DNA of 64,000 bases, from NCBI GenBank assembly GCA_051313645.2, contig JBNRSN020000031.1:21452001-21516000 (forward strand), read 5' to 3'. Below are positions 825 through 39,569 of the stretch, piece after piece. This stretch comes from Centroscyllium fabricii (lineage: Eukaryota). Below the pieces are notes generated by a model, which ran no database searches, had not been told where the DNA came from, and saw only the letters and a program-made list of their open reading frames with translations. Position 1 is the stretch's first letter, and each line of letters begins with the position of its first letter. Position numbers and translations under genes: made by a program.

Positions 825-1204
825 CAGGTCCAGCACCGTTAATCCGGACACCGTTAATCCGGATACTTTAGTCATCTGGCCGACTGGTCTGCTCATGCGC
901 AAAATGGCCACCGCGCTTGGCTGTGCATGTGCAAAATGGCCGCCGTGCTTGGCTGCGCATGCGCTAAACGGCCGCCGTGCTTGGCTGCGCATGCGCAAAA
1001 CGGCCGCTGCACTTGGTTGTGCATGCCTGGGCCCCTCCCCGAACGATTGATGCTTCGGCGAGCGCATGCGCAGGCCATTCAAAATGGCCACCGGCTTGCG
1101 CGGCCGGCCATTTTGAATGGTCTGCGCATGCGCTTACCAAAGCTTCAATCATTTGGATTTTTCACTACTCCGGCACCAGCCTGCTCCCGCCGGTGCCGGA
1201 CCTG
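825..1204. mobile_element. Non-autonomous Tc1/mariner-pogo-type MITE (CAGG...CCTG family)
   Basis: TA at 823-824 and 1205-1206; TIR CAGGTCC(A/G)GCACC; removing the element plus one TA restores the host CR1 frame AGG AAG GCA AAT AGT ATG TTA (RKANSML). Confidence 0.85.
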
Positions 1205-1743
1205 TAGTATGTTACCCTTTATTACAAGGGGGTTGGAGTACAAGAGTAAGGGTGTCTTGCTGCAATTATATAGGACTTTAGTAAGACCATACCTGGGATA
1301 CTATGTACAGTTTTGGTCGTCTTACCAAAGGAAGGATATACTTGCCTTTTAGAGGGGATGCAACAAAGGTTCGCCAGATTGATTCCTGAGATGAGAGGGC
1401 TGCCTTATGAGAAGAGATCGAGTAGAATGGGCCTATATTCTCTGGCGTTTAGGAGAATACGGGATGATCTCATTGAAACATATAAAATTCTTAAGGGCTT
1501 GACAGGGTAGATGTGGAGAGGTTGTTTCCCCTGCCTGGAGCCTCTGGAGCTAGGGGCCATAGTCTGGGGATAAGGGGTCGACCATTTAAGACTGAGATGA
1601 GGAGGGATTTCTTCACTGAGGGTTGTGAATCTTTGGAAATCTCTACCCCCGAGGGCTGTGGATGCTCAGTCGATGATTATATTCAAGACGGAGATAGATA
1701 GATTGTTGGGCACTCAGGGGATCAAGCGATATGGGGATAGAGA

Positions 1744-1910
1744 ACTCTAAAAAGAAACTCCGGTACCTGCACGCCTGATAATGTACTCTACTGTATGCAT
1801 TTTGCATGTAATTTATTTATTTTTATTTGCACTACTCTCTGGAGAGTGAGTCTTCGTCTCGTTGTATTGTACTAGTACTCTGCAATGACAATAAAACTTG
1901 AATTGAATTG
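1744..1910 (+). mobile_element. Short 3' tail of a different non-LTR element inserted in the CR1 3' end
   Basis: Interrupts the CR1 tail; ends in CAATAAAA followed by (TTGAA)n repeats. Confidence 0.5.
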
Positions 1911-3300
1911 AGTGGGAAAATTCAGTTAATGCAGAAGTTCAGCCATGATCTTATTGAATGGCAGAGCAAGCTTGATGGTCTGTACGGCCTACTCCTGCTC
2001 CTAGTTCTTATGTTCTTATGAGTCGTTCACTTGTAGTGCTTCACAAAACGGCATGCAGCTGCTTAAAATTTGTGCCTGTTAAGTGCAGTAAAAACATTGG
2101 CACCATGTAACAATTAGGCCTGAATTGTGTAACTTAAAACATTGTCAAAATATATTGTTCTCCTTGCTCTGGTAAAGTCAAGGTGTTACAGACTAATCTG
2201 CAGTAAGTAGATGAGTCATTGCGGAAGGGCTGACTAAACTAGCTGCTGTCTGTGTGCTCTTTGCATTTATAGCCTATTTCAGTCTCTCATTGTACTCAAC
2301 TGAAGCTACAATCCCATTTGTCTCTTCACCTTGCATAATTATAAACTTTACATTGCAGCAAAACATGTATTTTTTGCTTGACAAATGGACTTTTTAATAC
2401 GGTGGCAAATAAACATTGGATCATTTAATTATTCCCTCGTCTCTTAAAGTGCAGTTGATTTTGAGAGGTAAGGAATAGTTAATGCTCCTGTAACGATTAG
2501 AGTCCAGGAAGATTTCAGCCTTTGCAAGCCTACTTCTGATAATTGTGATTTGGAGGTGCCGGTGGAGGTGGAGGTGCAACTGATAATTGAAAGTACCTTT
2601 TCCGTGTTAACAAATTAGAATTATCCAATAATTTGAATTAAGCAGTGTCTAATTTAGGAAAATGGAAATTTACGACTGCAAAAAATGTAATTGTATTTTG
2701 AATTAAGAATAGACTATTATGTACCTGACTAAGCACTGGCTTTAAATGGTGGAGGGAAGGAAGCACCTCAGTCAAACTAAACTGCTGTAAGAAGTCACAC
2801 AACACCAGGTTATAGTCCAACAGTTTTATTTGAAATCACAAGCTATCTCGATCAAAGACGGGCACTTCACTACTCCCTCTACCTGGCACCTCCACATCAA
2901 AACTAAACTGCAGTGGTGTGCAGTGGTTTCACTTTGCACCAGTGTTATGTTTATAGTTCAAACTTGGCCTAAATTGGAATTCTGGAACTGACCGGACACT
3001 AGAGTGAGTGTGACTTCCTGCAGGAGGGTGCCTCACTCAGGAGTGAAGTTGTGCCTTTATTCTGGTTTGCATTACTCCAAGCGTAACAGCACTGCAATTT
3101 AGATCAGACTCCTATCTTCCGATATTCATAATTTGGAAAATTTACCAACAGCAAGACGAAAGCTTGTCAGCAGCTTTTAAGAACTGATTGTTTTAAAACC
3201 TGTTTGCTGAAAATCTGAATCAATTTCAGATTAGCAACAGATTTTATGGTTAAAATAACTTGTTTACGCTTGCCTGGCATCCACAGCCCTGAAGGTATTA

Positions 3301-4160
3301 ATTCAATTTCAATTCAATTAAAAAACTTTATTGGCATGACAGGATACATCCCTATGTTGCCAAAGTATAAAACATAACATACATAGTTAAAATGCATAGA
3401 TACAGATACAGGTGTACAATGTATGGGCAGATATGCCCCTGTACATGTGTATATATATATACACACACAATACATCTGTAACCTTTTATCGGTTGCTACA
3501 CGTTCTTGCAGTTACAAACAGTATAATAATTAGTGTTGATTAGTCTCTGTGTGTGTGCATGTTGGTCATTCACTGTCTCTCAGGTTGTGGCATGCTGTTA
3601 CGTATTGTGCACCAAGCTGTGCCCTATTTCCCTCGCCAAGGATTATTCTTAGTTTTGATATATCATCTAGTTCTTTGAATTCTGGGATTGCCAAGCTTAG
3701 TTTGTCAAAGTATGTTTTCCTTGTTTTGTCGAATTTTTTGCATTTTAGGAGGAAGTGCACCTCTGTTTCAACCTCATCTGTCAAACAGTGACCGCATATT
3801 CTATTTTCTCTTGGCTGCCAGGATTTCTTCGGTCTTCCTTTTTCGACTGCCAACTGGTGGTCACTTAGTCTGTACCTGGTGAGGGTCTGTCTCTGGTTTA
3901 TATTTCTGACAGTTGAGAGATAGTCTGCCAATTTATAATCTCTTTTTAGGGCACAGTAACATTCTAATCTGCTTTGGCTTTTGGTTACTTTATCCCAATG
4001 TTCCAAATAGGTTTCTTTGCATTGTTTGATGATTTGGTTCACTCTAATTGGTGTTTGGAAAGCAGCGTTGATCTGAGACTGGTCAAGGTTTGACTGAGTA
4101 GGGGTAGTTGGTCTCAATACCAACTGACACAGGGGACTCTTTTCTGGGTTCCGCTCTTGT
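3301..4160 (-). mobile_element. 5'-truncated non-LTR retrotransposon (RTE-X-like ORF2 C-terminus with CCHC finger)
   Basis: Uninterrupted ORF 3566-4123 with RLSDHQLAVEKGR...PRENRICGHC...VETEVHFLLKC, then a 3' UTR, AATAAA and a (TTGAA)n tail on the minus strand. Confidence 0.75.
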
Positions 4161-4296
4161 TTAATTGTTTACTCAGAATCTCTTACATTTTATATTTGCA
4201 TTTTCCTTCATTTAAGATACAGAGATAAATACCAAATATGTATTAAACTGTTGCTTGCATAATACCAGTGAGTGATCTTGATGCATTTCATTACAG

Positions 4297-4496
4297 CTGC
4301 AGTAGTTGTCACGCCAGACAAAGGCCCAAGGGCAGTTACTACCTCTGCACCAACTATAACTCATTCAGTGGAAGCCAGTAGCCCACCCACAGCTGAGACA
4401 ACAGGAGTGACTGAATCCAAAGCCACTAAAGAGGAAATAAAACCAGAGGCGCGTCTAGTTGACAAAAGAAGATCAGAACCAGTGCAGGACGTTGAG
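4297..4496 (+). CDS. EPB41: Protein 4.1R exon (equivalent to mammalian exon 13, U2 region)
   Basis: ttacag acceptor, GAG|gtac donor; phase 1 to phase 0; AAVVVTPDKGPRAVTTSAPTI resembles mammalian AAAVDSADRSPRPTSAPAI. Confidence 0.8.
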
Positions 4497-4611
4497 GTAC
4501 ATTCTTTGAGCTGAACTTTTTTGCTTGCTTTAACATATATTTTAAATGCATTTTCCAAAGGGTGTGGTGATCATTGTTTTAAGTGAGTAGATCTGTAGCT
4601 CATAACTCTTG

Positions 4612-5011
4612 ATAGAAACATAGAAACATAGAAGATAGGAGCAGGAGTAGGCCATTCGGCCCTTCGAGCCTGCTCCGCCATTCAATGAGATCATGGCTGA
4701 TCATCCAAACCCAGCACCCCGCCCCTGCCTTGTCCCCATATCCCTCGATCCCTATCGAGCCTGCACTGACACATATCCCACCCTATCCCCGTAACCCCAC
4801 ATATTTAATCCCCCTAACACTAAGGGTCAATTTATCCTGGCCAATCAACCTAACCCGCACATCTTTGGACTGTGGGAGGAATCCGGAGCACCCGGAGGAA
4901 ACCCACGCAGACACGGGGAGAATGTGCAAACTCCACACAGATAGTACCCGAGGCTGGATTTGAACCCGGGTCTCCAGAGCTGAGACAACAGTGCTAGCCA
5001 CTGTGCCGCCC
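4612..5011 (-). mobile_element. HE1-like tRNA-derived V-SINE
   Basis: tRNA-like head with A/B boxes, V-domain GTTTGCACATTCTCCCCGTGTCTGCGTGGGTTTCC, CR1-like tail. Confidence 0.9.
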
Positions 5012-5455
5012 ACTGATGTTCACTTTCAGTACGAGTCAGTTACTGTCTAATTTTAAAATGAACATTTTCTGATGTGATGACTATCATATAAAAGTGCAAG
5101 AAATTTATATCCCTCTTTGGGCCTAGCGAAGGAAGAGGGAAGTGAACGTATTTGGGAGTCAGATAATCCTCCCTCGGCTATCCAACCTGGCAGAGCAATT
5201 TCTCCAAAGACAGTTGGCCCAGTGCTGGCATTATTCCAGAGCAATTACATTGGGTGTTGTTATCAGCTGTTGTTCCATTCTACTCCTGCAGTACTGCGAC
5301 ATTTAAATAAATGCCAGCTTTCTCTTTTGGCTTCAATACAGGCTCTAGCTGCGGATTTAAAATCAAACAGCTCAGTAAGATGGAGGCTGTGAGATAAATT
5401 TAAAATAATTGCCAGAGGCAGAACTGTAAACGGGAGAGTTTTGTCATTTTAAATA

Positions 5456-6126
5456 CAGGTTGAGCACCGTCAATTCGGCACGGGCGGGACTAGGCCTGCG
5501 CCAGTATACCGAAAAAACCGGAAGAATGAAGCCGGCCAGTGCGCATGCCATTCAAAATGGCCACGCGCATGCACACAACATTGGAACTGGCCGCCGGAAG
5601 TTTTGATCACCTGCAGTGTAGCTGCAGCCGCCCAGAACCCGCCGTGCAAAGATCCCTAGGCTCGGCTCACCAGGCAGACAGGATGGGTCTCTTTCCCCCC
5701 CCCCCCCCACCCCGGCACACAACCATAAATTGAGGCCCAGGCTGTAGGCCCAGCACAGCACTAACAAGTTAGTAGAGCCTGGTCCCGGATAGCGCTGAGG
5801 GAGTGAGGCCGAAGCGAGCGGCAGATCCTTGCCGTTCGGCAGCGCACGAATGTGGAGGCAAAGGTCGGTCCAGCCTCCAGCGGCTGTTTTTGAATGATCT
5901 GCGCATGCGCTCGCCGTTCGGCGCATGCGCGGATCATTCAAAACGTCCGGCAGCTGTTTGAATGATCTACGCATGCGCTCGATGTTCGGCGGCGCATGCG
6001 CAGATCATTCGCTGAAACATCGATCACTGTAGCCATTTTGCGCATGCGCAGGACAGCCGGGGCAATTTTTGCCGGACGACTGAAGTTGCCAGCTTTTCGG
6101 TTACCGGATTAACGGTGCTCAACCTG
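5456..6126. mobile_element. MITE, CAGG...CCTG family
   Basis: TA on both flanks; 23-bp TIR CAGGTTGAGCACCGT(C/T)AAT(T/C)CGG; internal GCGCATGCGC repeats. Confidence 0.9.
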
Positions 6127-6519
6127 TATCATACAGCCAGAGGAGCAGAGCAACAACTGATGATGCACTGGACGATCTCCATTTAAAAAAAAAAAAAGTT
6201 CATGCTATTTGTGTTAATTTTTTTTGTTATCAATATTTAAACTTGAATCTGTGCCAAATTCTTACTGCAATGAGACTCCAGAAATACACGGGAAGAAGTG
6301 TGAGAACAGAAAACTTATTTTTGTATCTACAAATGAAGTTTATTGATATTTGCTGCAGTTGTGTACATCAAGATTTACAATAAATCCACAGTGGGGCTTG
6401 GATCGCAGAAGTAAACTCCTCTTTCACATTGAAGACTGACATTCAAATTGAATTTAAAAAATCTGGAACTGGAACACCAGTCTATTAACCCTTTAACAAG
6501 TGAATGCTGTAGAAGTATT

Positions 6520-7303
6520 GGGGGGGGGGGATTTTTGAAGGGCCGTGAAGGCGCATTTCCGGCGGGGCTTAAAATCGCGAAACCGGGGGGTCCGACCCCT
6601 CCCGCCGCTTTGCAGTTTTCGGCCGGTCGGCCCGAATCTTTCCCGCCCACTACCTGCGGGGTTGATCGTTGTGCTCATTAGGGGCCCTTAATTGCCATGG
6701 GCAATCCCATTTTAAGGGCCCCTCGCAATATTGAAGCCCTTCCCACCCGCACCCTGCCCTCCTGAAACCCCGCCGGTGAAACCTCGCGGGATCACAGTCG
6801 TCTTGGTCACTTTCACCTTCAAGGCATTGAAGCACCTGTAGCAGAATGCCTTCCAGGCCTTCAACACCCTGGAGGTGTAAGTGATTCCCTTGACTGAAGA
6901 GCAGTTGTGGAAAAAACCTTCCACAAACTTACCTGAATGGAAATGCTTCACAGAGAGACGGCCCCTAACTGAGAGAGCTTTCCAGCGAGTCCTTAGACCT
7001 GTCACTCAACCCACTTGGGCTTTGAGATTGGTTGCACTCCGTTGTGATACCACAATGGACTGTTTCCATAGAAACGAACAACACACAGTCCTTAGCTCTG
7101 TCAATCAAACCTCCGGCTGTCAGCTGCAGCGCCGCCGCTTTCTGACTGGAATCAGTCAATTGGCAGGGGCTCTGACACGTGGGCAATTAATTGGCCAATT
7201 AAACCAAAATTGCGTGGGGCTCCCAGGCCTTTGAACATTCGTGCCAGAAACCTGATCTGCCCAAAACCCACCAGTTTCCCACACCTTTGCAAAAATCCCC
7301 CCC
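6520..7303. mobile_element. Non-autonomous PIF/Harbinger-like element (GGG...CCC family)
   Basis: Termini GGGGGGGATTTTTG / CAAAAATCCCCCCC; flanks ATT/ATA; internal motifs shared with 25752-26575. Confidence 0.7.
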
Positions 7304-7440
7304 ATAATGTTTGGAAATGTAAAATGGCATTTCTCAGCCTGGTTTTGAAAAATCTTTTACAAATTACTATGTAAATTTTGTACACTTGAGATTTAATATT
7401 TGTGTTGAATTTCTCCTCATTTATTTCTGACATCAACCAG

Positions 7441-7500
7441 GTCATCACCAAGCAGACTGAAATCACACCACTTTCTGCCACAGCAAATGAAAAATCGCAG
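7441..7500 (+). CDS. EPB41: Protein 4.1R cassette exon (equivalent to exon 14), VITKQTEITPLSATANEKSQ
   Basis: ccag acceptor after a pyrimidine tract, CAG|gtttgt donor, 60 nt, phase 0/0; position and length match mammalian exon 14. Confidence 0.75.
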
Positions 7501-7618
7501 GTTTGTCTCCATGAGTTGGAATGAAAACAGTTCAAATGTATTAAGTTTAAAAAAAAACTTTGCAAGTCACATGGGTATGGATCACTAAACTGCATCTCTT
7601 TCCACAACGTTTGAACAG

Positions 7619-7660
7619 CAAAAGCCTGATGGAGAGGAAGAGGTTGTCCGAATGCGTAAG
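7619..7660 (+). CDS. EPB41: Protein 4.1R cassette exon (equivalent to exon 15), QKPDGEEEVVRMRK
   Basis: aacag acceptor, AAG|gttagc donor, 42 nt; ends in RMRK as mammalian exon 15 does. Confidence 0.85.
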
Positions 7661-7962
7661 GTTAGCATTTTCCAGTGTTTTTACAGATGGGTGTTTGGGA
7701 GTCTTTGTCCTTGTATACCCCCACATCATTTCCCTTGTTTAATCGCATTATGTTCCTTCATCAATGGTGAATTGCTCATTCTGCTTTTTCTTTTGGTGAT
7801 CAATTCTGGGAGTGTTCTTGTGGTTCCATGATCATCCTATGTGGATTCTGCTGCGCTAATGGAACTTTTTTTTTGAACACTTTTTATTTGCTACTTTGCA
7901 GTGCCACAAGAACAACATTTTAATTTCTGTGCTTTTCTTTTTTCCCTTCTTTCATTTCGCAG

Positions 7963-8025
7963 AAGAGATCAAAGAAAATTGAGGGTGAAAACATTTATGT
8001 CAGGCATAGCAATTTAATGTTGGAG
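7963..8025 (+). CDS. EPB41: Protein 4.1R exon 16 (spectrin-actin-binding cassette), KRSKKIEGENIYVRHSNLMLE
   Basis: 63 nt; strong polypyrimidine tract with gcag acceptor; GAG|gtttgt donor; GENIY.RHSNLMLE is the hallmark peptide. Confidence 0.97.
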
Positions 8026-8112
8026 GTTTGTATGAACTGAAAGCTTGTTACTCATCAAGTTGTCTTTAGTCCAGAGTTCTGCATTCATTCTTTGGCTGCA
8101 TTCACGCAATGT

Positions 8113-8199
8113 TGCATGTGCTGCATGTGACCAAAACGCAAGCATTATTGCGTTTTTGTTTTTAAAAGCGCTGTTTCTTTATAAGCGAGCATTGGCATG
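8113..8199 (+). promoter_or_regulatory. RBFOX-type intronic splicing enhancer downstream of exon 16
   Basis: TGCATG at 8113-8118 and 8122-8127, GCATG at 8195-8199; downstream UGCAUG elements are known activators of 4.1R exon 16. Confidence 0.8.
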
Positions 8200-8778
8200 T
8201 GTTTGGTTTTTTTTCTTTAAACTACTTGAAAGTATGGTTGGGAAGGTGGTTCCTGTAAGATGATCCATTATGAAAGTCCACGGTGAGGTCCATGAAGACA
8301 TTAGAGCTGTAAATTACTTTGGCCTTTGGATTTTTTTGTGACCAATATAAGGGCGTTCTACTGATGTTTGCACGCACAATTGTATTTCTGTGACTATAAA
8401 AAGCAAATAAAAACAAAATAAATACACTCTTCACAATATGGTGATTCTTGAACCACTGGCGCTTTATGGCTTAAAAAGACAGTGTTCCCTTTGGTTAATT
8501 TATTTAAACTCCTGAAGCACAATTTTACTTGATGCTTGCCCCCTTTGGGAACTTTATGGGTTAAAAACATTTTTTGTTAATCCTACATAAAATCCAATGG
8601 GTCAACAGAAGAATGAGTTGAATTTGACATGTCCATTTTATTGCGTAATTGTTGGTACAGGGTATTGTTTTCTTCTCCTACCCTGGAGAGTTGAGGCACT
8701 TTGAAGATTCAAATCAAATTCAAGAAATTGAAGACCGGTCTAAAGTTGTACGTAATATCGAACAACTCCCAGAATGCT

Positions 8779-9324
8779 ATAGCAAAATACTGCAGATGCT
8801 GGAAATCTGAAATGACAACAGAAAATGCTGGAAAAACTCAGCAGGTCAGGCAACATCTGTGGAGAGAGATATAGAGAGCCCCTCCCATTCTGCCAGTGCT
8901 TTTCACACCTAATCTACAGCTGTCTCCTGTCCACAGCCGCATCTGCATTGAATACCTCTTAACGTCTTTTCTCTTTGTTCTCTCTCCTCTTTTGTTTTCT
9001 GTTCCCTCCCAGCTCCCCCGGCCTTCCTACCTCTTTCATTTAGAAACATAGAAACTAGGAGCAGGAGTCGGCCATTCGGCCCTTCGAGCCTGCTCCGCCA
9101 TTCAATGAGATCATGGCTGAACATCCAAACCCAGCACCCTGCCCCTGCCCTCTCCCCATATCGCTCGATCCCCATCGAGCCTGCATCGACACATATCCCA
9201 CCCTATCCCTGGCTTTATTTCTGGCTTTAGTCTTGACAAAGGGTTCGAACCCAAAACGTCGGCTCTATATTTCTCTCCACGGATGTTGCCTGGCCTGCTG
9301 AGCTTTACCAGCATTTTTCTGTTA
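8779..9324. mobile_element. Penelope-like non-autonomous element with inverted ends and a nested HE1 SINE 3' fragment (about 9041-9210)
   Basis: 12-bp direct repeat TCCCAGAATGCT at 8767-8778 and 9325-9336; 8817-8880 is inverted relative to 9261-9323; decayed hammerhead-like core at 9233-9260. Confidence 0.65.
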
Positions 9325-11513: not shown

Positions 11514-11612
11514 ATGTTCACTTAAGGTAGACCAGCTTCTTTACTGCAGTCTAGTCTGATGAGGATCAGCTGATTCATCTTGGTTTATTGCATTGAAAAG
11601 TTAACCTAACGT

Positions 11613-13268: not shown

Positions 13269-13448
13269 GATCTAGACAAAACCCAGGATGAGATAATGAA
13301 ACATCATGCCAGTATCAGTGAACTGAAACGCAGCTTTATGGAGTCTGTACCTGAACCGCGCCCCAGCGAATGGGACAAACGGCTCTCGGTGCACTCGCCT
13401 TTTAGAACGTTGAATATCAACGGGCAAGTTCAATCTGGTACAGAAGGA
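13269..13448 (+). CDS. EPB41: Protein 4.1R exon 17 (SAB domain)
   Basis: aatag acceptor, GGA|gtaagt donor, 180 nt; DLDKTQDEIMKHHASISELKRSFMESVPEPRPSEWDKRLSVHSPFRTLNINGQ is nearly identical to mammalian 4.1R. Confidence 0.98.
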
Positions 13449-15862: not shown

Positions 15863-16178
15863 CAGGTACACAATCCCTTATCCGAAACCTTTGGGACCGG
15901 ACGGGTCTCGGTTTTCGGGATTTTTTGGTTTTCGGATGGTGCGCATTGCCGTGTTGGCGGCCCAGTGCACGGGCGGGGAACAGCTTATCAACGGTTCATT
16001 TCCTCAGCACGGCATCGACAGCAACCTGTAACCTTGCCTTAAGGTAAAAATATCTTTTTTCTCAGTGATAAATGCTGCAGCTGGTCACCTCGTTCAATTT
16101 ATTTAAGAAAAATATAGTTATTTTGGCGCAACTCGGGTTTTCGGTTTTCGGAGTTGCAGTTAAGGGATTGTGTACCTG
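15863..16178. mobile_element. MITE with TA duplication (Tc1/mariner-pogo type, distinct subfamily)
   Basis: Perfect 18-bp TIR CAGGTACACAATCCCTTA flanked by TA on both sides. Confidence 0.9.
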
Positions 16179-21012: not shown

Positions 21013-21348
21013 CAGCAAACTTTTTTTTAAATCCGGCACCGACTGGACCGGCGTGGTGCCGGTTTATCAAAAAGTCCGGATTACAGAGAGGTATAGTTAA
21101 AAAGTATGAGAGCCCCGTACGCAACAACAAATCCAGGCGTCCTTGTTGCTTAGCAACAGGTGCAGGACCCCCGGCCACAAGATCCGGCGTCCCTGTTGCT
21201 AAGCAACAGGTGCAGGAACCCTGGTTACATGGCCACAGATCCAGCAACGGCCACTAATATGAAGTAAAACTTACTTGAACCAACGCCTGAATTTTGTTGG
21301 TTAAGAGATTTCCGGTCATTTAGGTACTGGTAAATCGAGAGTTTCCTG
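21013..21348. mobile_element. Degenerate MITE (CAG...CTG, TA flanks) with internal X-box-like repeats
   Basis: TA at 21011-12 and 21349-50; imperfect TIR CAGCAAACT/CAGGAAACT; internal repeated GTTGCT(T/A)AGCAAC units. Confidence 0.7.
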
Positions 21349-21462: not shown

Positions 21463-24400
21463 CAGGTTGAGCACCAGTAATCCGTTACCCAAAAAACCGG
21501 CAGCTTCGAACGTCTGGCAATAATTCCCCCGACTGCGCCGTGCATGCGCTAAATGGCACCCGCGATTGATGCTTCGGTGACTGATCTGCGCCTGCGCCGC
21601 CAAACGGTGAGTGCATGCGCAGATCATTCACTAGCCCTCCGAGCCCAGCCTCACCTCTCCGAGTCCAGCCCCGCCCAGCCCTGCCCAACCTCTCTGAGCC
21701 CAGCCCTGCCCAACCTCTCTGAGCCCAGCCCTGCCCAACCTCTCTGAGCCCAGCCCTGCCCAACCTCTCTGAGCCCAGCCCTGCCCAACCTCTCTGAGCC
21801 CAGCCCTGCCCAACCTCTCTGAGCCCAGCCCTGCCCAACCTCTCTGAGCCCAGCCCTGCCCAACCTCTCTGAGCCCAGCCCTGCCCAACCTCTCTGAGCC
21901 CAGCCCTGCCCAACCTCTCTGAGCCCAGCCCTGCCCAACCTCTCTGAGCCCAGCCCTGCCCAACCTCTCTGAGCCCAGCCCTGCCCAACCTCTCTGAGCC
22001 CAGCCCTGCCCAACCTCTCTGAGCCCAGCCCTGCCCAACCTCTCTGAGCCCAGCCCTGCCCAACCTCTCTGAGCCCAGCCCTGCCCAACCTCTCTGAGCC
22101 CAGCCCTGCCCAACCTCTCTGAGCCCAGCCCTGCCCAACCTCTCTGAGCCCAGCCCTGCCCAACCTCTCTGAGCCCAGCCCTGCCCAACCTCTCTGAGCC
22201 CAGCCCTGCCCAACCTCTCTGAGCCCAGCCCTGCCCAACCTCTCTGAGCCCAGCCCTGCCCAACCTCTCTGAGCCCAGCCCTGCCCAACCTCTCTGAGCC
22301 CAGCCCTGCCCAACCTCTCTGAGCCCAGCCCTGCCCAACCTCTCTGAGCCCAGCCCTGCCCAACCTCTCTGCGCCCAGCCCTGCCCAACCTCTCTGAGCC
22401 CAGCCCTGCCCAACCTCTCTGAGCCCAGCCCTGCCCAACCTCTCTGAGCCCAGCCCTGCCCAACCTCTCTGAGCCCAGCCCTGCCCAACCTCTCTGAGCC
22501 CAGCCCTGCCCAACCTCTCTGAGCCCAGCCCTGCCCAACCTCTCTGAGCCCAGCCCTGCCCAACCTCTCTGAGCCCAGCCCTGCCCAACCTCTCTGAGCC
22601 CAGCCCTGCCCAACCTCTCTGAGCCCAGCCCTGCCCAACCTCTCTGAGCCCAGCCCTGCCCAACCTCTCTGAGCCCAGCCCTGCCCAACCTCTCTGAGCC
22701 CAGCCCTGCCCAACCTCTCTGAGCCCAGCCCTGCCCAACCTCTCTGAGCCCAGCCCTGCCCAACCTCTCTGAGCCCAGCCCTGCCCAACCTCTCTGAGCC
22801 CAGCCCTGCCCAACCTCTCTGAGCCCAGCCCTGCCCAACCTCTCTGAGCCCAGCCCTGCCCAACCTCTCTGAGCCCAGCCCTGCCCAACCTCTCTGAGCC
22901 CAGCCCTGCCCAACCTCTCTGAGCCCAGCCCTGCCCAACCTCTCTGAGCCCAGCCCTGCCCAACCTCTCTGAGCCCAGCCCTGCCCAACCTCTCTGAGCC
23001 CAGCCCTGCCCAACCTCTGAGCCCAGCCCTGCCCAACCTCTCTGAGCCCAGCCCTGCCCAACCTCTCTGAGCCCAGCCCTGCCCAACCTCTCTGCGCCCA
23101 GCCCTGCCCAACCTCTCTGAGCCCAGCCCTGCCCAACCTCTCTGAGCCCAGCCCTGCCCAACCTCTCTGAGCCCAGCCCTGCCCAACCTCTCTGAGCCCA
23201 GCCCTGCCCAACCTCTCTGAGCCCAGCCCTGCCCAACCTCTGAGCCCAGCCCTGCCCAACCTCTGAGCCCAGCCCTGCCCAACCTCTGAGCCCAGCCCTG
23301 CCCAACCTCTGAGCCCAGCCCTGCCCAACCTCTGAGCCCAGCCCTGCCCAACCTCTGAGCCCAGCCCTGCCCAACCTCTGAGCCCAGCCCTGCCCAACCT
23401 CTGAGCCCAGCCCTGCCCAACCTCTGAGCCCAGCCCTGCCCAACCTCTGAGCCCAGCCCTGCCCAACCTCTGAGCCCAGCCCTGCCCAACCTCTGAGCCC
23501 AGCCCTGCCCAACCTCTGAGCCCAGCCCTGCCCAACCTCTGAGCCCAGCCCTGCCCAACCTCTGAGCCCAGCCCTGCCCAACCTCTGAGCCCAGCCCTGC
23601 CCAACCTCTGAGCCCAGCCCTGCCCAACCTCTGAGCCCAGCCCTGCCCAACCTCTGAGCCCAGCCCTGCCCAACCTCTGAGCCCAGCCCTGCCCAACCTC
23701 TGAGCCCAGCCCTGCCCAACCTCTGAGCCCAGCCCTGCCCAACCTCTGAGCCCAGCCCTGCCCAACCTCTGAGCCCAGCCCTGCCCAACCTCTGAGCCCA
23801 GCCCTGCCCAACCTCTGAGCCCAGCCCTGCCCAACCTCTGAGCCCAGCCCTGCCCAACCTCTGAGCCCAGCCCTGCCCAACCTCTGAGCCCAGCCCTGCC
23901 CAACCTCTGAGCCCAGCCCTGCCCAACCTCTGAGCCCAGCCCTGCCCAACCTCTGAGCCCAGCCCTGCCCAACCTCTGAGCCCAGCCCTGCCCAACCTCT
24001 GAGCCCAGCCCTGCCCAACCTCTGAGCCCAGCCCTGCCCAACCTCTGAGCCCAGCCCTGCCCAACCTCTGAGCCCAGCCCTGCCCAACCTCTGAGCCCAG
24101 CCCTGCCCAACCTCTGAGCCCAGCCCTGCCCAACCTCTGAGCCCAGCCCTGCCCAACCTCTGAGCCCAGCCCTGCCCAACCTCTGAGCCCAGCCCTGCCC
24201 AACCTCTGAGCCCAGCCCTGCCCAACCTCTGAGCCCAGCCCTGCCCAACCTCTGAGCCCAGCCCTGCCCAACCTCTGAGCCCAGCCCTGCCCAACCTCTG
24301 AGCCCAGCCCTGCCCAACCTCTGAGCCCAGCCCTGCCCAACCTCTGAGCCCAGCCCTGCCCAACCTCTGAGCCCAGCCCTGCCCAACCTCTGAGCCCAGC

Positions 24401-25478
24401 CCTGCCCAACCTCTGAGCCCAGCCCTGCCCAACCTCTGAGCCCAGCCCTGCCCAACCTCTGAGCCCAGCCCTGCCCAACCTCTGAGCCCAGCCCTGCCCA
24501 ACCTCTGAGCCCAGCCCTGCCCAACCTCTGAGCCCAGCCCTGCCCAACCTCTGAGCCCAGCCCTGCCCAACCTCTGAGCCCAGCCCTGCCCAACCTCTGA
24601 GCCCAGCCCTGCCCAACCTCTGAGCCCAGCCCTGCCCAACCTCTGAGCCCAGCCCTGCCCAACCTCTGAGCCCAGCCCTGCCCAACCTCTGAGCCCAGCC
24701 CTGCCCAACCTCTGAGCCCAGCCCTGCCCAACCTCTCCGAGCCCAGCCCCGCCCAACCTCTCCGAGCCCAGCCCCGCCCAACCTCTCCGAGCCCAGCCCC
24801 GCCCAACCTCTCCGAGCCCAGCCCCGCCCAACCTCTCCGAGCCCAGCCCCGCAACTCCGAGCCCAACCTCGCCGGGCCTCTCCGAGCTGATCCCGGGCCT
24901 CCCCGAATGACAAGCGCATGCGCAGACCACTCAAAATGGCCGGCAGCCTTTCGCGGCGACCATTTTGAATGATCTGCGCATGCGTCGCCGGACGGCTAGC
25001 GCATGCGCAGATCATTCAAAACGGCCGCCAGGCCTTCCGTGGCGTCAGGGCGAAAATAAAACTGGAAGCGCACGGTTCCCGGCGAGCAGGCTGGCCCTGT
25101 GCGGGAGCCGGGAATGGGAATGTTGAGCGGAGTTCCTTACCCGGCTTTGCTGCTGCTGGAGTCAGTGGATGAGCGGCTGGCTGAGTGAGTGAACAGCTCC
25201 GGCTTGTGTCTCGGCAGTACTAGCATATCCAGTGAGCACTCACTCTAAAAATAGCTCCCCTCCCCCTGCACCAATCCGCACATACACATGGCCCCACTCA
25301 GCCTCCTCTTTTGGACTTTTCCTGCAATGTTCGGCGGCCATTTCCAATGTTGTGCGCATGCGCGCGGCCTTTTTGCATGGTGCGCGCATGCGCACTGACC
25401 GACTTCATTCTGCCGGTTTTTTCACTTTCCCGGCACGGGCCTGGTCCCGCCCGTGCCGGATTTCCGGTGCACAACCTG
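21463..25478. mobile_element. MITE of the CAGG...CCTG family expanded to 4 kb by an internal minisatellite
   Basis: TA|CAGGTTGAGCACCAGTAATCCG ... CGGATTTCCGGTGCACAACCTG|TA; ends match the copies at 30752 and 34940. Confidence 0.9.
21640..24870. repeat. GC-rich minisatellite: 25-bp unit GAGCCCAGCCCTGCCCAACCTCTCT switching to a 23-bp unit near 23240
   Basis: Directly visible near-perfect tandem array of roughly 130 units. Confidence 0.99.
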
Positions 25479-29555: not shown

Positions 29556-29557
29556 CT

Positions 29558-30751: not shown

Positions 30752-31226
30752 CAGGTTGAGCACCGGAAATCCGGCACGGGCGGGACCAGGCCCGTGCCGG
30801 GAAAGTGAAACAACCGGCAGAATGAAGTCGGTCAGTGCGCATGCGCGCACCATTCAAAATGGCCGCGCGCATGCGCACAATATTGGGAATGGCCGCCGGA
30901 CGTCCTTGCGGAGTCTCCGCTACGGTTTGTGCCTCCTGATGACAGGCAGCAGGCTGCTCCGGGGAACCGCGCGCTTCATGGCGGGCACTCGGGACTCGCA
31001 CATTCAAAACGCGGCGCGAGCCGCCACGCCACGGAAGGCCCGGCTCGTCCGGCGGCCGTTTTGAATGATCGCATGCGCTTGCCGTCCAGCGGCGCATGCG
31101 CAGATCATTCGCCGAAGCCGCGATCGCAGCTGCCATTTTGCGCATGCGCAGTGCAGTCGGGGCAATTTGTTCCGGAAGACTGAAGCTGCCGGCGTTTCGG
31201 GTCACGGATTTCCAGTGCTCAACCTG
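30752..31226. mobile_element. MITE, CAGG...CCTG family
   Basis: TA flanks; TIR CAGGTTGAGCAC(C/T)GGAAATCCG. Confidence 0.9.
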
Positions 31227-31799: not shown

Positions 31800-32770
31800 T
31801 GGTTAGTTGGACGATGGTTGTGCAAGGGCCGGGTTGGACAGTGGTTGTGCAATGGGGTGGGTTGGACGGTGGATGCGCGAGGAGGCGGCTTGGGTGGTGG
31901 TTGCGCGAGGGGGGAGGTTGGGCGGTGGTTGTGCGAGGGGGAGGGTTGGACGATGGTTGTGCAAGGGCCGGGTTGCACGGTGGTTGTGCGAAGGGGCAGG
32001 TTGGACGGTGGTTGTGCGAGGGGCGGGTTGGACGGTGGTTGCGCGAGGGTGCGGGTTGGACGGTGGTTGTGCGGGTTGGACGGTGGTTGCGCGAGGGGGC
32101 GGGTTGGACGGTGGTTGCGCGAGGGGCGGGTTGGACGGTGGTTGCGAGAGGGGGCGGGTTGGACGGTGGTTGCGCGAGGGGGCGGGTTGGACGGTGGTTG
32201 CGCGAGGGGGGCGGGTTGGACGGTGGTTGTGCGAGGGGCGGGTTGGACGGTGGTTGTGCGAGGGGCGGGTTGGACGGTGGTTGTGCGAGGGGGCGGGTTG
32301 GACGGTGGTTGCGCGAGGGGGCGGGTTGGACGGTGGTTGCGCGAGGGGGCGGGTTGGACGTGGTTGCGCGAGGGGGCGGGTTGGACGTGGTTGCGCGAGG
32401 GGGCGGGTTGGACGGTGGTTGCGCGAGGGGGCGGGTTGGACGGTGGTTGCGCGAGGGGGCGGGTTGGACGGTGGTTGCGCGAGGGGGGCGGGTTGGACGG
32501 TGGTTGCGCGAGGGGGGCGGGTTGGACGGTGGTTGCGCGAGGGGGGCGGGTTGGACGGTGGTTGCGCGAGGGGGGCGGGTTGGACGGTGGTTGCGCGAGG
32601 GGGGCGGGTTGGACGGTGGTTGCGCGAGGGGGGCGGGTTGGACGGTGGTTGCGCGAGGGGGGCGGGTTGGACGGTGGTTGCGCGAGGGGGGCGGGTTGGA
32701 CGGTGGTTGCGCGAGGGGGGCGGGTTGGACGGTGGTTGCGCGAGGGGGCGGGTTGGACGGTGGATGTGAG
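31800..32770. repeat. G-rich, CpG-rich minisatellite, 27-29-bp unit GGGTTGGACGGTGGTTGCGCGAGGGGG(G)C
   Basis: Directly visible tandem array of about 34 units. Confidence 0.98.
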
Positions 32771-33220
32771 GGGTTGGAAGGTGGTTACATGTGGGGTGGT
32801 TGTGGATGGTGGTTATGTGGGGGATGGATTAGATGGTAGTTGTGCAACTTTCACTTTCCTGAATATTTCTGCTTAGTTGTATTGATGGTGCGCTTTGTGA
32901 GACAATAATCTAGAATTTTGCATTTGATAACAGGATTTGTTTTATTCAGCTCTACGGTATAATAGAGTGCAAACAAATTGACATTCAAATCATTTTGGAC
33001 CTTGACGTGAATTTAAATTTAGTCTAAACCTGGTCTGCAAACCCAAATGAATAATAAGGTTTAAATATATAAATTAATGGTGTTTCACTATAATGCTGTT
33101 GATTGAATATGACCTATTATAGATTACTTGCCTCCTTAACTAAGCTGTATTGAATGTACTTTTTACATGGTCCCCAAAAGAAAACATTATATAGTCTGAT
33201 TTACTGTATTAGTATACATA

Positions 33221-33837
33221 GGGCGTGAAATTCGCACTCTGGCGCCGGCCCATTAGCGCCCAAAATAGGCGCTAATGGGCCAGCGCCGCATTAGTGCCAA
33301 AAATAGCACCCCCCGCAAAATTCAGCTGGGGGCTAACTGTTAGCGCCCCAACGAATTTAGCGCCCAGCTGGACGTCCTGAATGACGTCATCAAGCTGCGC
33401 AGCGCCTGGGAGGCACTGTACGCCCGAAATTGGGCAGCGCCAGCCGTTTTATTGCGACGCTCTGCCAACGCCAGCTTTTTTCTGTCCAAACAGCAGCGCC
33501 CGAGCGCTGCCTAAAGGGAAGTGTGGCGGTCGGCCATTTTTATTGCTGGCCGACCGCCAGCACATTCCCCCTCGGCTTTCCCCGGCCTCCCTCGCTGCTC
33601 CCCGGCTGGGTGAGGCTTCCCTCAGCTGAGCCCGGCACTTCCTCCGAGTGCCGGGCTCGTTCTGCGGCTCCCGGTCCCTCGGCGGCCCCGCGGGGCTCTC
33701 GTTGCGGCCTCACTCACGCAGCGCTGCGCTAACGGCCTGATGGAGCGAGGCGGCTCGCCCGATTTAGCGCCCGCCCAAACTGAATGGGCATCGCCCAGGT
33801 CAGCGCCACTTTTTGTGCGCTGACCAATTTAGCCCCC
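33221..33837. mobile_element. Non-autonomous PIF/Harbinger-like element
   Basis: ATA duplication on both sides; imperfect TIR GGGCGTGAAATT / AATTTAGCCCCC; many internal TAGCGCC repeats. Confidence 0.75.
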
Positions 33838-34939
33838 ATAGTGTTGACATGTGGATTTAAGCAAGCAATTTACCCTCAGTTTCGGTTTAGCCCGGCCCAC
33901 TGTAGGCTTTGTGGAAATTTAGTTTGTCTATAAAGGAAAATTGGCTATGTTTTTAGCTTGTTCGGTCAATTCTAATACAGGATGCTTCCAAATACAACAT
34001 GTGACTGTGCCCTGTGAATCAAACTATGCTTCACAATGCCATACAAACATTTTTTTAATGCCCTTTTGGTGGGCTTATTGGATGTCTTGCTTTGGGTTTA
34101 GCTTCAGTTATGGCCCAATGTGTTGTGCTTTTGGCTTATACAACCTTAATTCATGTGTTTTTAAGTATAAATAAGTGTTATTTTGAGGAATGGCAGGTGA
34201 ATGAAGTTACAGAAGAATGTAGTAGACCTTTCTGCTAAGCACATATATGAATAGACCAGAAGAAAAGGCATCATTGTATTCCATAGCTGTTGTAATTGGA
34301 AATGTTCAGGCAATATGTAGGAGTTTTTTTGTTGGAATGTGTTCAGCAAGGGTGGTTGGGCTTCAGATTACTTACCCAGTAAGTTATCGTATAGCTTAAA
34401 AAGTGAATTGTAATTTAACTTTACAGGGATTGGAGATAGTGTTGAGGCAGCAGCAAACCAGATATCCGGATGCAGTACACAAGCTGCATGTTGTTTATTT
34501 CTTGCTGCACAAGTATATATCAGAAAGTGTGCTTAATGTTAGAAGCGTTTAGTGCAAGATCGTGGATCAGAATTTGGCATTTGTTACTTGAGACAGTTGG
34601 ATGGCTGACCGTTGACTTTGAATTAAAGTCAATTAAATAACACCTGTGAGAAAGGGACACAGTCACCAAACCTGAAGTATTTTTGATGGATTTAGGTCTT
34701 CAAGCAGTGAATTTCCTCATTGGCTTGCAGAAGATGAACCACTATGTAGCACCTACAAGAATATTCAAGGAATTGTCAGGCTGAAATAAGTTGTCGTAAA
34801 AGTAACCCAAGCCAAAGTGCCTGCATCAGTAGTCATTGGAATATTGTCAAATATCAGAATATTATTAGCTAACACACAGCACTGCAGTAGTGTAAAGAAG
34901 AGAAATAGTTCTGAATGTCATTAGGTTCATATTCTAATA

Positions 34940-35543
34940 CAGGTTGTGCACCGAAAATCCGTGACCCGAAACGCCGGCAGCTTCAGTCTGCCGGCACAAA
35001 TTGCCCCGACTGCACTACGCATGCGCAAGATAGCAGCCGCCATCGTGGCTTCGGCGAATGATCTGCGCATGCGCCGCTGAACGGCGAGCGCATGCGCAGA
35101 TCATTCAATACGGCCACCGGTTATTTTCTCGACAGCTGAGCCCCTTGACTGAGGCGGAGAGTCACCACGCAGCAGCTGTCAGCCCGAGTCCAGCAGCAAC
35201 CCCAAAGGCGATGGAGAGGGAAGGCGGACCTACTGGGCCCGACCCGCGCCCGCACAACCCTCCTTTCCCCCCCCCCCTGCAAGACCGGCCTTTCACTGCT
35301 GCCCGACAGCCCTAAAAGCCAAACGGAACGCCACAAAAGCCTGAGCCCCTCAAAAAACTTCGCGACGGCCGTTATTGGATGATCTGCGCATGCGCTCGCC
35401 AGCCATTCCCAATGTTGTGCGCATGCGCGCGGCCATTTTGAATGGTGCGCACATGCGCATTGTCCAACTTCATTCTCCCGGTTTTTTCACTTTCCCGGCA
35501 TGGGCCTGGTCCCGCCCGTGCCGGATTAATGGAGCACAACCTG
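34940..35543. mobile_element. MITE, CAGG...CCTG family
   Basis: TA flanks; TIR CAGGTTGTGC...AATCCG; internal GCGCATGCGC modules. Confidence 0.9.
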
Positions 35544-37526
35544 TACAAATAAGATGCAACAAGAGTCTTGGTGTGAGACTACTTTATGACATAAGTATGT
35601 TCTCCTCAATTGAGTCCACATGTTTATCACTGGAGAGGGGAACTGCACAAGTCGCTCTGATACCAGTTTGCGTAAATGTTCTTTCTAAAAGTGTTTTTTT
35701 TCCTACTGGTCTTCCACATTGGTAGACCGATGTTTCACTAATGTCACATGACAGTCGCTGGATGTGGAATGCGGAATAGAGACTGGAGTAAGGATGTTAG
35801 AGAGGGAAGAAGTGGGCAGCAGGAGGCAGATGCATAAATATTGATAGTTGAAGGTGTATTAAGCAGAAAAGAATTAGGGCACTGGGGAGGAGGAAGAGCG
35901 AGAGAGAAATTAGTTTGTGGAGGCAATAAGAGTGAGCTTGACGGGCAACAATGAATTGATTACATATTTTGTAACTGGCGATTAGTACCCTTGGTTGTTG
36001 CAGTCTGCAGCGGTGTGGTTGGCAACCTGGTGAGCTTGCACTGTATTTGTAATGTAAAAGTAGGTTGTGGGGTGGAAGCAATGACACTAAAATAAAGACC
36101 GCAGTCCTTGTGTAAGTAATCATTTAAATGGTCATTTATTTCTAGATTGATTTTAACAATTTAGTTTTTTCAATGCATTTGCTTTGAACTTCAAATATTA
36201 ATTAAGTCTGATGCTTAGTTAATAATGGATTGTTTGAGCTCCTTTACGGACTCGAGATGTTTACTCACAAAGTTCGAGAGAAAAAAGTCTGAGACGGGCT
36301 GGCAGCATCGTAAAATAATCAGTGCCATCGGGACATTAAAGGCCCCCATTTTCTGAAAGTTTATTTTTTCCTCTGCAAATAACCTTTTATGGAGAATAAT
36401 CAGTTTATGACTTAAATTGTAGGCTGCTTCATCTTTTATTTTTATTTTTGTATCCCTGTTGAATCCAGGTGATAAATAGATCAATAATTCACAAAGAAAT
36501 TGTATCTTGGGCCATGCTGTATAGGCGAGTGAATGGGAATGGTACAGTGGAATTCTACCCTCTTGTCAAGTATTTCAGATAAACAGTTTTCCAGACTCTA
36601 GCACATTAATTTAGAACAAGTTGGCAATATGTTTCATCTCTCAGAATGAGAATGACCGATATATAAATAACCCTTTCAGTGGAACTTTGTATATTCCTGG
36701 ATTCCCTTTTTTCTTGTACATATGTAAGAAAAATAAACACATCGTGAAAACCTGATCTGCAGGCTTATCGTTTTCTTTTGAACTGTGGTGATTTATTAAT
36801 TTACGCAGTTGCATGTTAACCAGGTCAGCATCTTGTAACCATAAAGCATTCCAGTAATTTATGAACCATAAGTAAAACCAATATATTGACGAAGCAGGTT
36901 ATAAGGGTATAAACTAATCAGGTGATTCAGATGATCTCCTAAACCTTCAGGGAAAACCTGTTTATAAAAATTGTCCAAATAAATTACCCAGGATTAGATG
37001 ATGGTGTGTAACTACTGTATAGAACATTTTTATTTTTAATTGAGATGGGGATGGTAAGATTGGAGTGGCCATGTTTTCATTTGCTCTTTGGCATTTTTTC
37101 CAATGTACTTTAATGTGGTGCAAATTCACAGTAGATCACAGAGAAATTGAGTATAAAGTGTAGTGTTATATTAAGAGTGTCACCGGTGTTGCTGCCGGAT
37201 TTATAAAATATTCAACAAAGGATTTAGCTTGGATGTAAAGTCCTCAATGGACTGTGAAGTTTCGATATAAAAGTTAAATGTTTTTGTGTGTTCTTTGCTG
37301 AATCATTTATCGTATGGATTTTTATCTTAATTTTAGTTCTTTTGGTTGTAATTTACTATTAAGCTGGGAGTTGGACAGCGGGGGCAGGCATCCTACACAT
37401 TGATGAGGTGGTTGTAGTGGGATGGGGGTAGTTGGATTGCTCAAACCATGGAATAGTCTGAAGTCTACTCTAGTGAACGTCTCAATGAGAAGGGACATTC
37501 TGTAGATATATGTAGTCATTTTAATA

Positions 37527-38026
37527 GGGCGGCACGGTGGCACAGTGGTTAGCACTGTTGCCTCACAGCTCTGGAGACCCGGGTTCAAATCCAGCCTCGG
37601 GCACTCTCTGTGTGGAGTTTGCACATTCTCCCCGTGTCTGCGTGGGTTTCCTCCGGGTGCTCCGGTTTCCTCCCACAGTTCAAAGATGTGCGGTTAGGTT
37701 GATTGGCCAGGATAAATTGACCCTTAGTGTTAGGGTGATGCAAATGTGTGTGGTTATGGGAATAGGGTGGGATATGTGTCAGTGCAGGCTCGATAGGGAT
37801 CGAGGGATATGGGGTCAAGGCAGGGACGGGGTACTGGGTTTGGATGATCAGCCATGATCTCATTGAATGGCGGAGCAGGCTCGATAGGGATCGAGGGATA
37901 TGGGGACAAGGCAGGGACAGGGTGCTGGGTTTGGATGATCAGCCATGATCTCATTGAATGGCGGAGCAGGCTCGAAGGGCCGAATGGCCTACTCCTGCTC
38001 CTATCTTCTATGTTTTCTATGTTTCT
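37527..38026 (+). mobile_element. HE1-like V-SINE with tandemly duplicated tail
   Basis: Tail segment GCAGGCTCGATAGGG...GAATGGCGGA is repeated. Confidence 0.9.
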
Positions 38027-38953
38027 TCATGTACAAGTGACCAGAATGTCTAATCAGCAGTATAGTACATTGAATACATTGTAGTTGAATAGAAAACTTA
38101 CTAAGTTCAGTGGCTTTAGATGCTAAAACAGACTTCAAACTTGAAGAAAATATGCATGTTTCCACCAGTTGAAGAGTCTGTAAATAATCATCTTTCCTGG
38201 ACTCCTATACTTAACCAGGTCTTTTCTGTAGTTCCAAGCTATTGTAAAGTTAATATCCTGATCTGCAATTACAGAAAAAACTTCATTCTCTGATGCACAT
38301 CCTGATTTAATAGAGGAGAGGTTGCTCTAGATTGGCAAGGCAACACAAAACTGGCAATAGCTGCAGTACAGAGAGGGCATATAAGGATATTGGAGTGCAC
38401 ATTTCAAAAGTGGAGAATGTGTGATTTCTTTGTGTGTTAATTGCCCAACATGCTGATTATTATTTTTGGCTATTTCTAATGTCGTTTTAAAGCTTATTTG
38501 TGATGATATAAGCATCAATATGTTGGGACTTTGGGGAAATGAAAGCTGGACTTTAGCTGATTAGCATTAGAATATTGAAGAGCCTTGATTGGTATTAAAT
38601 GAGATGGCCTCTTTTTAAGGAAAAACAACGTTAAGCCTGCTTGTTCATTCCTGGTTACGAGTTTATTAAAGTCAGCTGTAGCTTATTCCCTTGGAATAAA
38701 TGGAACCATTCTTCATGGAATGCGCGACGCAAACTTTAATTGAATCCTCAGTTTTATTTTACGGGTGACGTGATTGCATTCTCTAAAGAAGAGTTTGGTA
38801 ACACCAGTAACCCCGGAGCCAGAAGGTTTGTTTCTTACATAGTCTCTTCCAGTGTTACTAAAGATGCCAAGCCTAATTTCACAGCCGCCTGTATAATTCT
38901 GTAGAAAATGATCACTGCAGGTGTGAATATCAGCTCTGCAAAATTCTGATGTG

Positions 38954-39569
38954 CAGGTTGAAGTTCGTTAATCCGGCAGGGTCGGGACCAGGCCCGTGCC
39001 GGAATACTGAAAATCCCAAACGAATGAAGCTGTCCCGAGCGCATGCGTGGACCATTCAAAATGGCCACGCGCATGCGCAGAACATTCGAAATGGCTGCAG
39101 CACGCGCAGACCAGTGCAGGTGGCCGCAGCGCGCAGGTGGAGGCAGAGCACCGAGCACGGGGCGATTTCCAGGTGGAGCAGTCCAACTGCCCGCAGCGCG
39201 CGAAAATAGCACTACAGCACAGTCCGACCGTCGGGGCACACAACGAAAGTTCGGGTGCGGCTGAAGCCACGCCTCCGAGACACGCCCCGGAAGTTCGGGT
39301 GCGGCTGAAGCCACGCCGTCGGGACCAGTGCGCATTCGGGAAAGGCCCCGGGAGGGAGCCCGGTCCAACACTTCACGGGGCCCGAGCTTCATGTCGGGTA
39401 CGGGGTTTTTTGTAAAGCATCGAAGAGCGCCGCTGCGCATGCGCAGGCCAGTCGGGGATTGCGGACGGTGAGGAGCACCACTGCGCATGCGCCGACCACT
39501 CGGGGAAATCTGTGCCGGACGTCTGAAGCTGCCGGTTTTTCGGGTGCCGGATTAACGAACTTTAACCTG
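38954..39569. mobile_element. MITE, CAGG...CCTG family
   Basis: 25-bp TIR CAGGTT(G/A)AAGTTCGTTAATCCGGCA; flanks TG/TA. Confidence 0.88.

Follow-up and report, generated by a model that had tools for sequence, protein, structure and literature searches.

The window, by which we mean the whole 64-kb stretch analysed here, lies on contig JBNRSN020000031.1 (positions 21,452,001 to 21,516,000) of the 7.2-Gb genome assembly of Centroscyllium fabricii. Two clear matches among the 124 window frames scanned, one to the SAB domain (13269..13406) and one to the C-terminal domain (53394..53495), mark exons of a band 4.1 family gene that runs on the plus strand, and it is likely that the mobile elements discussed below sit within the introns of this gene, for which the exon map is partial. 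These elements are miniature transposable elements with inverted repeats (MITEs), six of which a first-pass annotation, made from the letters alone, had put forward as one family carrying dense NRF1- and YY1-like motifs, that is, as possible mobile CpG-island promoters. They are bounded by CAGG and CCTG at exactly the starts given by that annotation and extend over 825-1204 (copy 1, minus strand), 5456-6126 (copy 2, plus), 21463-25478 (copy 3, minus), 30752-31226 (copy 4, plus), 34940-35543 (copy 5, minus) and 38954-39569 (copy 6, plus). Their terminal inverted repeats (TIRs) match over about 14-25 bp with 1-5 mismatches, within the 40-bp limit for short TIRs. The TA flanks described for all six hold on both sides of five; copy 6 has TG on its left, a flank that is mostly TA in the sisters of this copy (subfamily f6), and TA stands at both ends in 27/30 copies of each of the subfamilies to which copies 2 and 4 belong (f2 and f4). 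The centres do differ between copies, as had been noticed, but they are not one of a kind: the idea of unique cores was rejected, since genome searches with each centre tried returned a multi-copy subfamily. A tblastn search of the window gave no Tigger transposase match. The six elements are young, non-autonomous pogo/Tigger MITEs, members of separate multi-copy subfamilies of one clan, with a TA target-site duplication (TSD), short TIRs and ends homologous to those of an autonomous Tigger.

All 23 of the GCGCATGCGC palindromes in the window fall inside the six elements; a first-order Markov model would predict 0.07 inside the elements and 0.014 in the whole 64 kb. Perfect TGCGCATGCGCA occurs at the three places already reported (6039-6050, 31139-31150 and 39434-39445) and at a fourth, 986-997. 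The larger module built around the motif exists, but its full form, as first written, occurs exactly only once (24999); with C or T allowed at one further position there are 2 exact occurrences and 9 within two mismatches. The modules lie 75-85 bp inside the element ends, and the block adjacent to the motif has what we take to be a likeness to YY1 and to CHR (TTTGAA) sites. A CpG island is defined by a GC content above 50%, a CpG observed/expected (o/e) ratio above 0.6 and a length above 200 bp, and five of the six elements qualify by these sequence criteria. Their CpGs appear intact, as the first-pass annotation held, because the copies are young (o/e 0.96-1.22 in the five, vs. 0.42 outside); copy 3, being mostly a CpG-poor minisatellite, departs from this description. 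The identification of the motif with NRF1 was sound: GCGCATGCGC matches the preferred NRF1 consensus, as given in the portion of PMC10810270 available to us.

Sequence of this kind might belong to copies that escape methylation, and how the inserted copies decay bears directly on this. Decay was followed in 139 of 149 loci (those with at least 85% of the element covered) from five subfamilies, f2, f3R, f4, f5 and f6, after columns with a minor allele above 30% had been dropped. CpG transitions were found at 1096 of 18412 sites, vs. 641 of 67320 at non-CpG sites, a 6.3-fold excess across the 139 copies, and hypermutability ran from 5.2- to 8.8-fold across all five subfamilies. CpG hypermutability is a sign of germline methylation. 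Two controls behaved in the same way: TigA, an abundant autonomous Tigger with CENP-B_N, HTH_Tnp_Tc5 and DDE_1 domains (7.4-fold; 76 loci, a few of them overlapping), and the multi-copy family of a seventh window element that had been overlooked (copy 7, 57659..58362, plus strand), which has the ends of the clan without GCGCATGCGC (6.7-fold; 29/30 loci). Within the elements, CpGs in the motif had decayed at 188 of 3278 sites (0.057) and other interior CpGs at 704 of 11642 (0.060; p = 0.53), with 0.014 vs. 0.017 at non-CpG sites inside and outside the motif (p = 0.12); taken by subfamily, motif CpGs decayed more slowly than the others in f4 and f6, as fast in f2 and faster in f5 and f3R. This comparison of decay inside and outside the motif is one that the first-pass annotation had proposed, and equal rates are the outcome that it had named as counting against its own suggestion that the family protects itself from methylation. 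We reject that suggestion for the family at large, since CpGs in the motif are lost at the pace of the element around them and the CpG excess equals that of the Tigger and motif-free controls. Judged by this mutation spectrum, inserted copies probably lose CpGs as methylated DNA does, and it is likely that the family does not consist of protected promoters, a minority of exapted copies being allowed for.

Comparison between lineages gives a different picture from the neutral decay of inserted copies. Both arms were aligned for 37 representatives (5 consensuses and 32 single copies), and changes were counted on a tree built from the upstream columns only, the motif columns being left out. With all 37 included, the motif is modestly more conserved than its surroundings (p = 0.10 in the A arm and 0.12 in the B arm), modestly because the A module is missing in 4/37 representatives and the B module in 6/37. 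In the A arm of the module-bearing representatives, the motif beats all 76 upstream 10-bp windows, TIR included, with 1.1 changes per column against 2.4 in the TIR, 3.4 in the subterminal region and 2.5 in the 4-bp spacer (p = 0.003), and the adjacent CATTCAAAATGG block is lower still at 0.58; the values for the motif and for CATTCAAAATGG are about what post-insertion decay alone predicts. Set against one another, the consensuses of the five subfamilies vary at 1 of 20 columns in the motif and at 56 of 162 upstream columns (p = 0.005). This constancy, which the first-pass annotation had overlooked, suggests selection during transposition, likely through putative NRF1 binding, and the conserved motif may thus matter to the element rather than to the host. 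We therefore favour, with a probability of roughly 55%, the reading that these are young non-coding cut-and-paste transposons of pogo/Tigger type, that their inserted copies decay like methylated DNA and that the arm palindrome hardly changes in the transposing lineages, likely because NRF1 binding of an unmethylated copy aids mobilisation.

Several observations weigh against this reading. In the B arm the motif, at 1.7 changes per column, does not differ significantly from the rest, at about 2 (p = 0.26, or 0.04 when non-CpG columns alone are counted), and 15 of the 68 upstream windows there equal it in conservation. The A-arm comparison stands at p = 0.10 when the four motif-free representatives are kept, and their removal followed viewing of the alignment; the representatives are, moreover, related to one another and mosaic. 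Variants common within subfamilies affect 3 of 159 motif positions vs. 68 of 2075 elsewhere, which is the same direction at p = 0.48. The first motif of the A arm is broken in the f2 consensus, and a variant disrupting the module block TTTTGAATG has spread to 11/24 f3R copies. The motif-free branch was amplified too (4086 first-look candidates, a measure that ran from 861 to 9289 per search and does not give copy numbers), and the motif is therefore not required. The exact transposase was not found in the partner searches described below, and NRF1 binding is putative, read from the sequence.

The suggestion that these elements capture cargo is confirmed by copy 4 (subfamily f4, consensus 489 bp, 5 motifs), which carries on the minus strand, at 30902..31036, a captured CENPW promoter end and exon 1 piece with its start codon at 30979 and, in the window copy, a premature stop. 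The f4 consensus is identical to exon 1 of the CENPW parent (L263:8824-8973) at 129/150 positions (86% over 150 bp), and window copy 4 at 102/122. A genome search with a CENP-W profile found a single exon, the only match among 150 scored; the CpG-rich first exon lies about 10.7 kb upstream of it, on contig C1, and the two parent exons match Pfam CENP-W with E-values of 0.005 (below the cut-off) and 8.5e-12. Since the parent lacks GCGCATGCGC (and has no MITE arms), the motif belongs to the arms, and its acquisition from the captured promoter was rejected. After the capture, f4 copies transposed again, and they stand at 30 loci with unrelated flanks, which is how a multicopy Pack-TIR is recognised. 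An intron of CENPW holds a clan MITE of its own (L261:639-1233) with an ATG-initiated frame that gave no Pfam match and presumably resembles the start of a cytochrome b561-family gene. A further captured promoter is likely in another clan MITE (L270:2040-2919), where CCAAT is repeated several times and a short stretch leads from an ATG to a donor.

Copy 3, at 4,016 bp, is a one-off chimera: its left part comes from a subfamily bearing a variable-number tandem repeat (VNTR) and its right part from f3R. The crossover interval (24963..24971) falls within the shared TTTTGAATG block, and no second copy of the junction was found among the 40 scored places. Most of its length is a 3.2-kb CpG-poor minisatellite of 23/25-bp units (21673..24849, plus strand), with 125 of 130 units in the CpG-decayed form out of which it grew; in sister elements of the VNTR-bearing subfamily (L202-L230; 470-1374 bp) the VNTR core is GC-rich and of variable length. 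In the f3R core (25030..25330, minus strand), promoter-like DNA stands together with a stretch resembling a non-coding exon and with a GTAAG donor at 25140; at its start, 17 bp of the captured CENPW promoter lie beside an unrelated core. One base of this relic is common to f3R and f4 against the parent, in 22/22 and 16/16 readable copies, respectively (it is unreadable in 2 and 14 further copies). The relic beside a different core indicates that cargo has been replaced in series. RNA evidence was not found, no run being recorded as RNA. Contigs of four sequencing runs left the copy-3 core uncovered, and such lack of cover is not evidence: in one run the arms and modules are present with joints that skip the core, and in the other three only the right flank is covered, with extensions left of 25479 in letters absent from window and genome (allowing up to 2 mismatches). 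An origin of copy 3 by DNA loss between two neighbouring copies would fit these leftward extensions, which are indecisive at about 7% divergence.

The remaining copies vary in what they carry. Copy 1 consists almost entirely of motif modules, 4.3 tandem 32-bp units (889-1026) and an inverted module pair, without a foreign core; elements resembling it turned up at L096, L097, L103 and L269 as incidental matches, no genome-wide search having been made with copy 1. In the core of copy 2 (f2, consensus 674 bp, 6 motifs), the minus strand shows splice-donor-like sites, and the core of copy 6 (f6, 616 bp, 4 motifs) has ETS-like CCGGAAG repeats and an ATG adjoining a donor-like site. The cores of copies 2, 3 and 6 look like promoter or first-exon pieces. 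Core-only searches with copies 2, 3, 5 and 6 returned MITE copies, with no host parent among the best matches. For copy 5 (f5, consensus 683 bp, 7 motifs), an open frame gave no Pfam match, and among longer proteins it had no homolog, though this counts as weak evidence. Donor-like splice sites, recognised by sequence only, share the host gene's strand at 58228 (copy 7) and at about 39398 (copy 6).

In genome searches, copies 2, 4 and 6 and the cores of copies 3, 5 and 7 were found at full or near-full length at all 40 scored places, and the median non-CpG divergence from consensus was 0.9-3.1%, a figure biased toward young copies since best matches were taken. Grouping of 237 elements gave 44 clusters, and the larger of these were mostly the ones at which our own searches had been aimed. 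In 391 kb of flanking sequence we counted 37 clan ends, which corresponds to 47 elements per Mb (95% confidence interval 33-65) or about one per 21 kb, rather than the one per 10 kb of the first estimate, and to 2.4-4.7 x 10^5 elements genome-wide, provided that this flanking sequence is representative. It also contains 68 perfect motifs (174 per Mb), in agreement with the proposed genome-wide spread of the NRF1-type motif. Two clan members carry tandem arrays of 30-bp modules, with about ten units at L150:2153-2715 and about six at L159:2618-2994, and on the tree they stand as sisters of the motif-free branch.

In both clan arms, the outer 65 bp align box for box with the two TigA ends, while TIR bases 5-16 differ from those of the two autonomous Tiggers found, and TigA lacks GCGCATGCGC. 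No autonomous partner with the same TIR was found among 50 DDE_1 loci (the best 30 plus 20 selected ones, out of 150 scored) or among 30 CENP-B_N loci (of 150 scored), the scope of the search ending at these loci, above the lower-scoring transposase families. What these searches gave was TigA, a second Tigger and one likely domesticated gene. The last of these, an intact pogo-type frame at L097:1194-2723 without obvious TIRs, is probably TIGD-like. Clan ends near transposase genes were considered as the genes' own ends and rejected, being those of MITEs inserted into TigA copies (L070, L077, L096 and L103) or lying beside L097. The second Tigger has a MITE of its own in the window (15863-16178), with ends that match full elements with long transposase frames (L093-L095), and a further window MITE (21013-21348), 114 bp left of copy 3, has TigA ends and an internal 50-bp duplication. 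On the small contig C967, eight DDE_1 matches between 6.98 and 9.29 Mb, each with a 558-residue open frame, suggest a tandemly duplicated TigA copy. Elsewhere in the window there are a CpG-rich minisatellite of 28/29-bp units outside the MITEs (31806-32823, 34 copies) and a stretch rich in GC and CpG that has inverted ends and repeats of the word AGCGCC (33220-33830), likely another non-autonomous DNA element.

We propose the following course of events for the clan. A Tigger-type transposase, presumably supplied in trans, would bind the boxes in the outer 65 bp and insert the element at TA; the ends and the TSD are seen directly, and the enzyme is deduced from them. Most copies would then be methylated in the germline and decay neutrally, as their mutation spectrum suggests, and the few copies that found subfamilies would be those retaining the palindrome and the adjacent CATTCAAAATGG block, a pattern visible in one arm and weaker in the other. 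NRF1 may bind such copies while they are unmethylated and so favour their mobilisation. The repeated inverted modules would in addition serve as homology joints at which cores are duplicated, swapped or replaced, pieces of host promoters included; the CENPW capture, its 17-bp relic and the copy-3 chimera are observed, and the repair mechanism behind them is conjectural. Hairpins formed by the modules might favour template switching, along the lines suggested for multicopy Pack-TIRs in the part of PMC8277862 that we could consult, and copy 4 does fold far better than shuffled sequences (z = -8.8). A bolder version of the same idea, which we regard as speculative and unlikely, is that the clan evolved arrays of optimal NRF1 sites (plus YY1- and CHR-like ones) as a hitch to host factors: unmethylated copies would be opened, drawn to active CpG-island promoters and mobilised more, hence the capture and swapping of gene 5' ends, with methylation-gated NRF1 sites, of the order of a million genome-wide, as a by-product.

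The main rival to selection through NRF1 is that structure alone keeps the modules uniform. They would be structural passengers, whose perfect palindromes and inverted pairs fold into hairpins; these would cause template switching when gaps are repaired, and the modules would thereby be multiplied and also corrected against one another, the NRF1 match being incidental. This is possible, though on the unlikely side. The folding of copy 4, the occurrence of modules as tandem arrays and inverted pairs, the fall of the copy-3 crossover in a module, the lack of significant motif avoidance by variants shared within subfamilies and the success of the motif-free branch all speak for it. Homogenisation of whole modules, however, should not spare the 4-bp spacer, which changes like the arm (2.5 per column) while the blocks flanking it hardly do, and inserted copies show no self-correction of the motif. 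The reading from which the analysis started, in which the copies are unmethylated CpG islands protected by their motifs and serve the host as mobile promoters, is in keeping with the sequence features of the elements (GC 0.59-0.64 and o/e of about 1, optimal NRF1 sites, and one copy with a real promoter piece) and could also draw on the lower, non-significant motif CpG rates of f4 (0.044 vs. 0.062) and f6 (0.052 vs. 0.068). It is at odds with the opposite trend in f5 and f3R, with a CpG hypermutability equal to that of the controls in all five subfamilies, with the loss of 27/297 CpGs (4 times the non-CpG rate) and of 5/23 motifs from the window copies, and with the amplification of a CpG-decayed unit about 125 times in copy 3. 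As a description of the family average it is largely refuted, and we hold it to be highly improbable.

It could also be that the modules provide the partner transposase, or an accessory protein that it encodes, with additional binding sites, boosting mobilisation as subterminal repeats do elsewhere. Their fixed distances from both ends and their conservation between lineages would suit this explanation, and the true partner, not having been found, has ends that could not be read for them. We nevertheless consider it improbable: the module is absent from the TigA consensus, whose subterminal boxes do match those of the clan, clan members with the same ends lack it (the A module in 4/37 representatives), and its sequence is exactly the optimal site of a host factor. 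The modules had also been suggested as transposase-binding sites, but a role as required sites of this kind is not supported, as they lie 75-85 bp inside the ends and are absent both from TigA and from an amplified sister family.

What the preferred reading, mobilisation aided by NRF1, adds is a separation of two levels of selection: selection at the level of the host, for protected promoters, is rejected by the decay, and selection at the level of the transposon lineage is suggested by the comparison between subfamilies. If true, it could explain the capture of promoters and first exons at copy numbers far above those of published animal Pack-TIRs. The existence of motif-bearing and motif-free branches with the same ends makes the question directly testable. 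What is new here is that inserted copies decay neutrally whereas an apparent constraint is seen from lineage to lineage, together with the relic of serial replacement and the crossover within a module. In the open-access literature, with Dfam and Repbase outside the comparison, we found no paper on GCGCATGCGC or the clan TIR in DNA transposons.

The comparisons that follow extend as far as the portions of the cited papers available to us. Tigger elements have a TA duplication and TIRs of 8-33 bp and have been reported from cartilaginous fishes (PMC9219625, PMC7386202). The clan resembles Tigger/pogo MITEs in its TA TSD, its short TIRs and its ends homologous to an element of the same genome with CENP-B_N, HTH_Tnp_Tc5 and DDE_1 domains, and differs from them in arms with 4-7 NRF1-type modules per subfamily consensus, in its variable cores and in TIR bases 5-16. 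Multicopy Pack-TIRs of animals, such as Pack-hAT-N8_XT (with the 5' untranslated region of CAPSL) and Ssk-FB4, are few, 4 of 370 Pack-TIRs being multicopy and in few copies (PMC8277862). Like them, f4 encloses a 5' piece of a host gene in TIR arms at a distance from the parent and has transposed again into new flanks, and the clan shares the repetitive arms which were there proposed to promote template switching; unlike them, the CENPW-bearing f4 is full length in all 40 scored of 5157 first-look candidates (again not a copy number), and the clan shows serial replacement of cargo.

Multiplication of the binding motif of a host factor by high-copy MITEs has a precedent in the Brassicaceae, where MITEs amplify E2F sites that E2F binds in vivo (PMC5950925). 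The clan differs in its vertebrate host, in a methylation-sensitive factor for which binding is here only putative, and in evidence that points to constraint on the transposing lineages rather than exaptation by the host. Sites for factors blocked by methylation are known from retroelements (PMC12420836, PMC9729108), and in mouse germ cells NRF1 binds and activates the unmethylated promoters of young IAP and L1 elements (PMC12420836). There, as here, young mobile elements carry NRF1 sites that are normally blocked by methylation, but retrotransposons need transcription in order to move and MITEs do not, and NRF1 would have to act on the latter through chromatin access or localisation, which is putative. 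If NRF1 binding does help a non-transcribed DNA element to move, the conflict between NRF1 and methylation that is played out in retrotransposons would extend to cut-and-paste elements as well.

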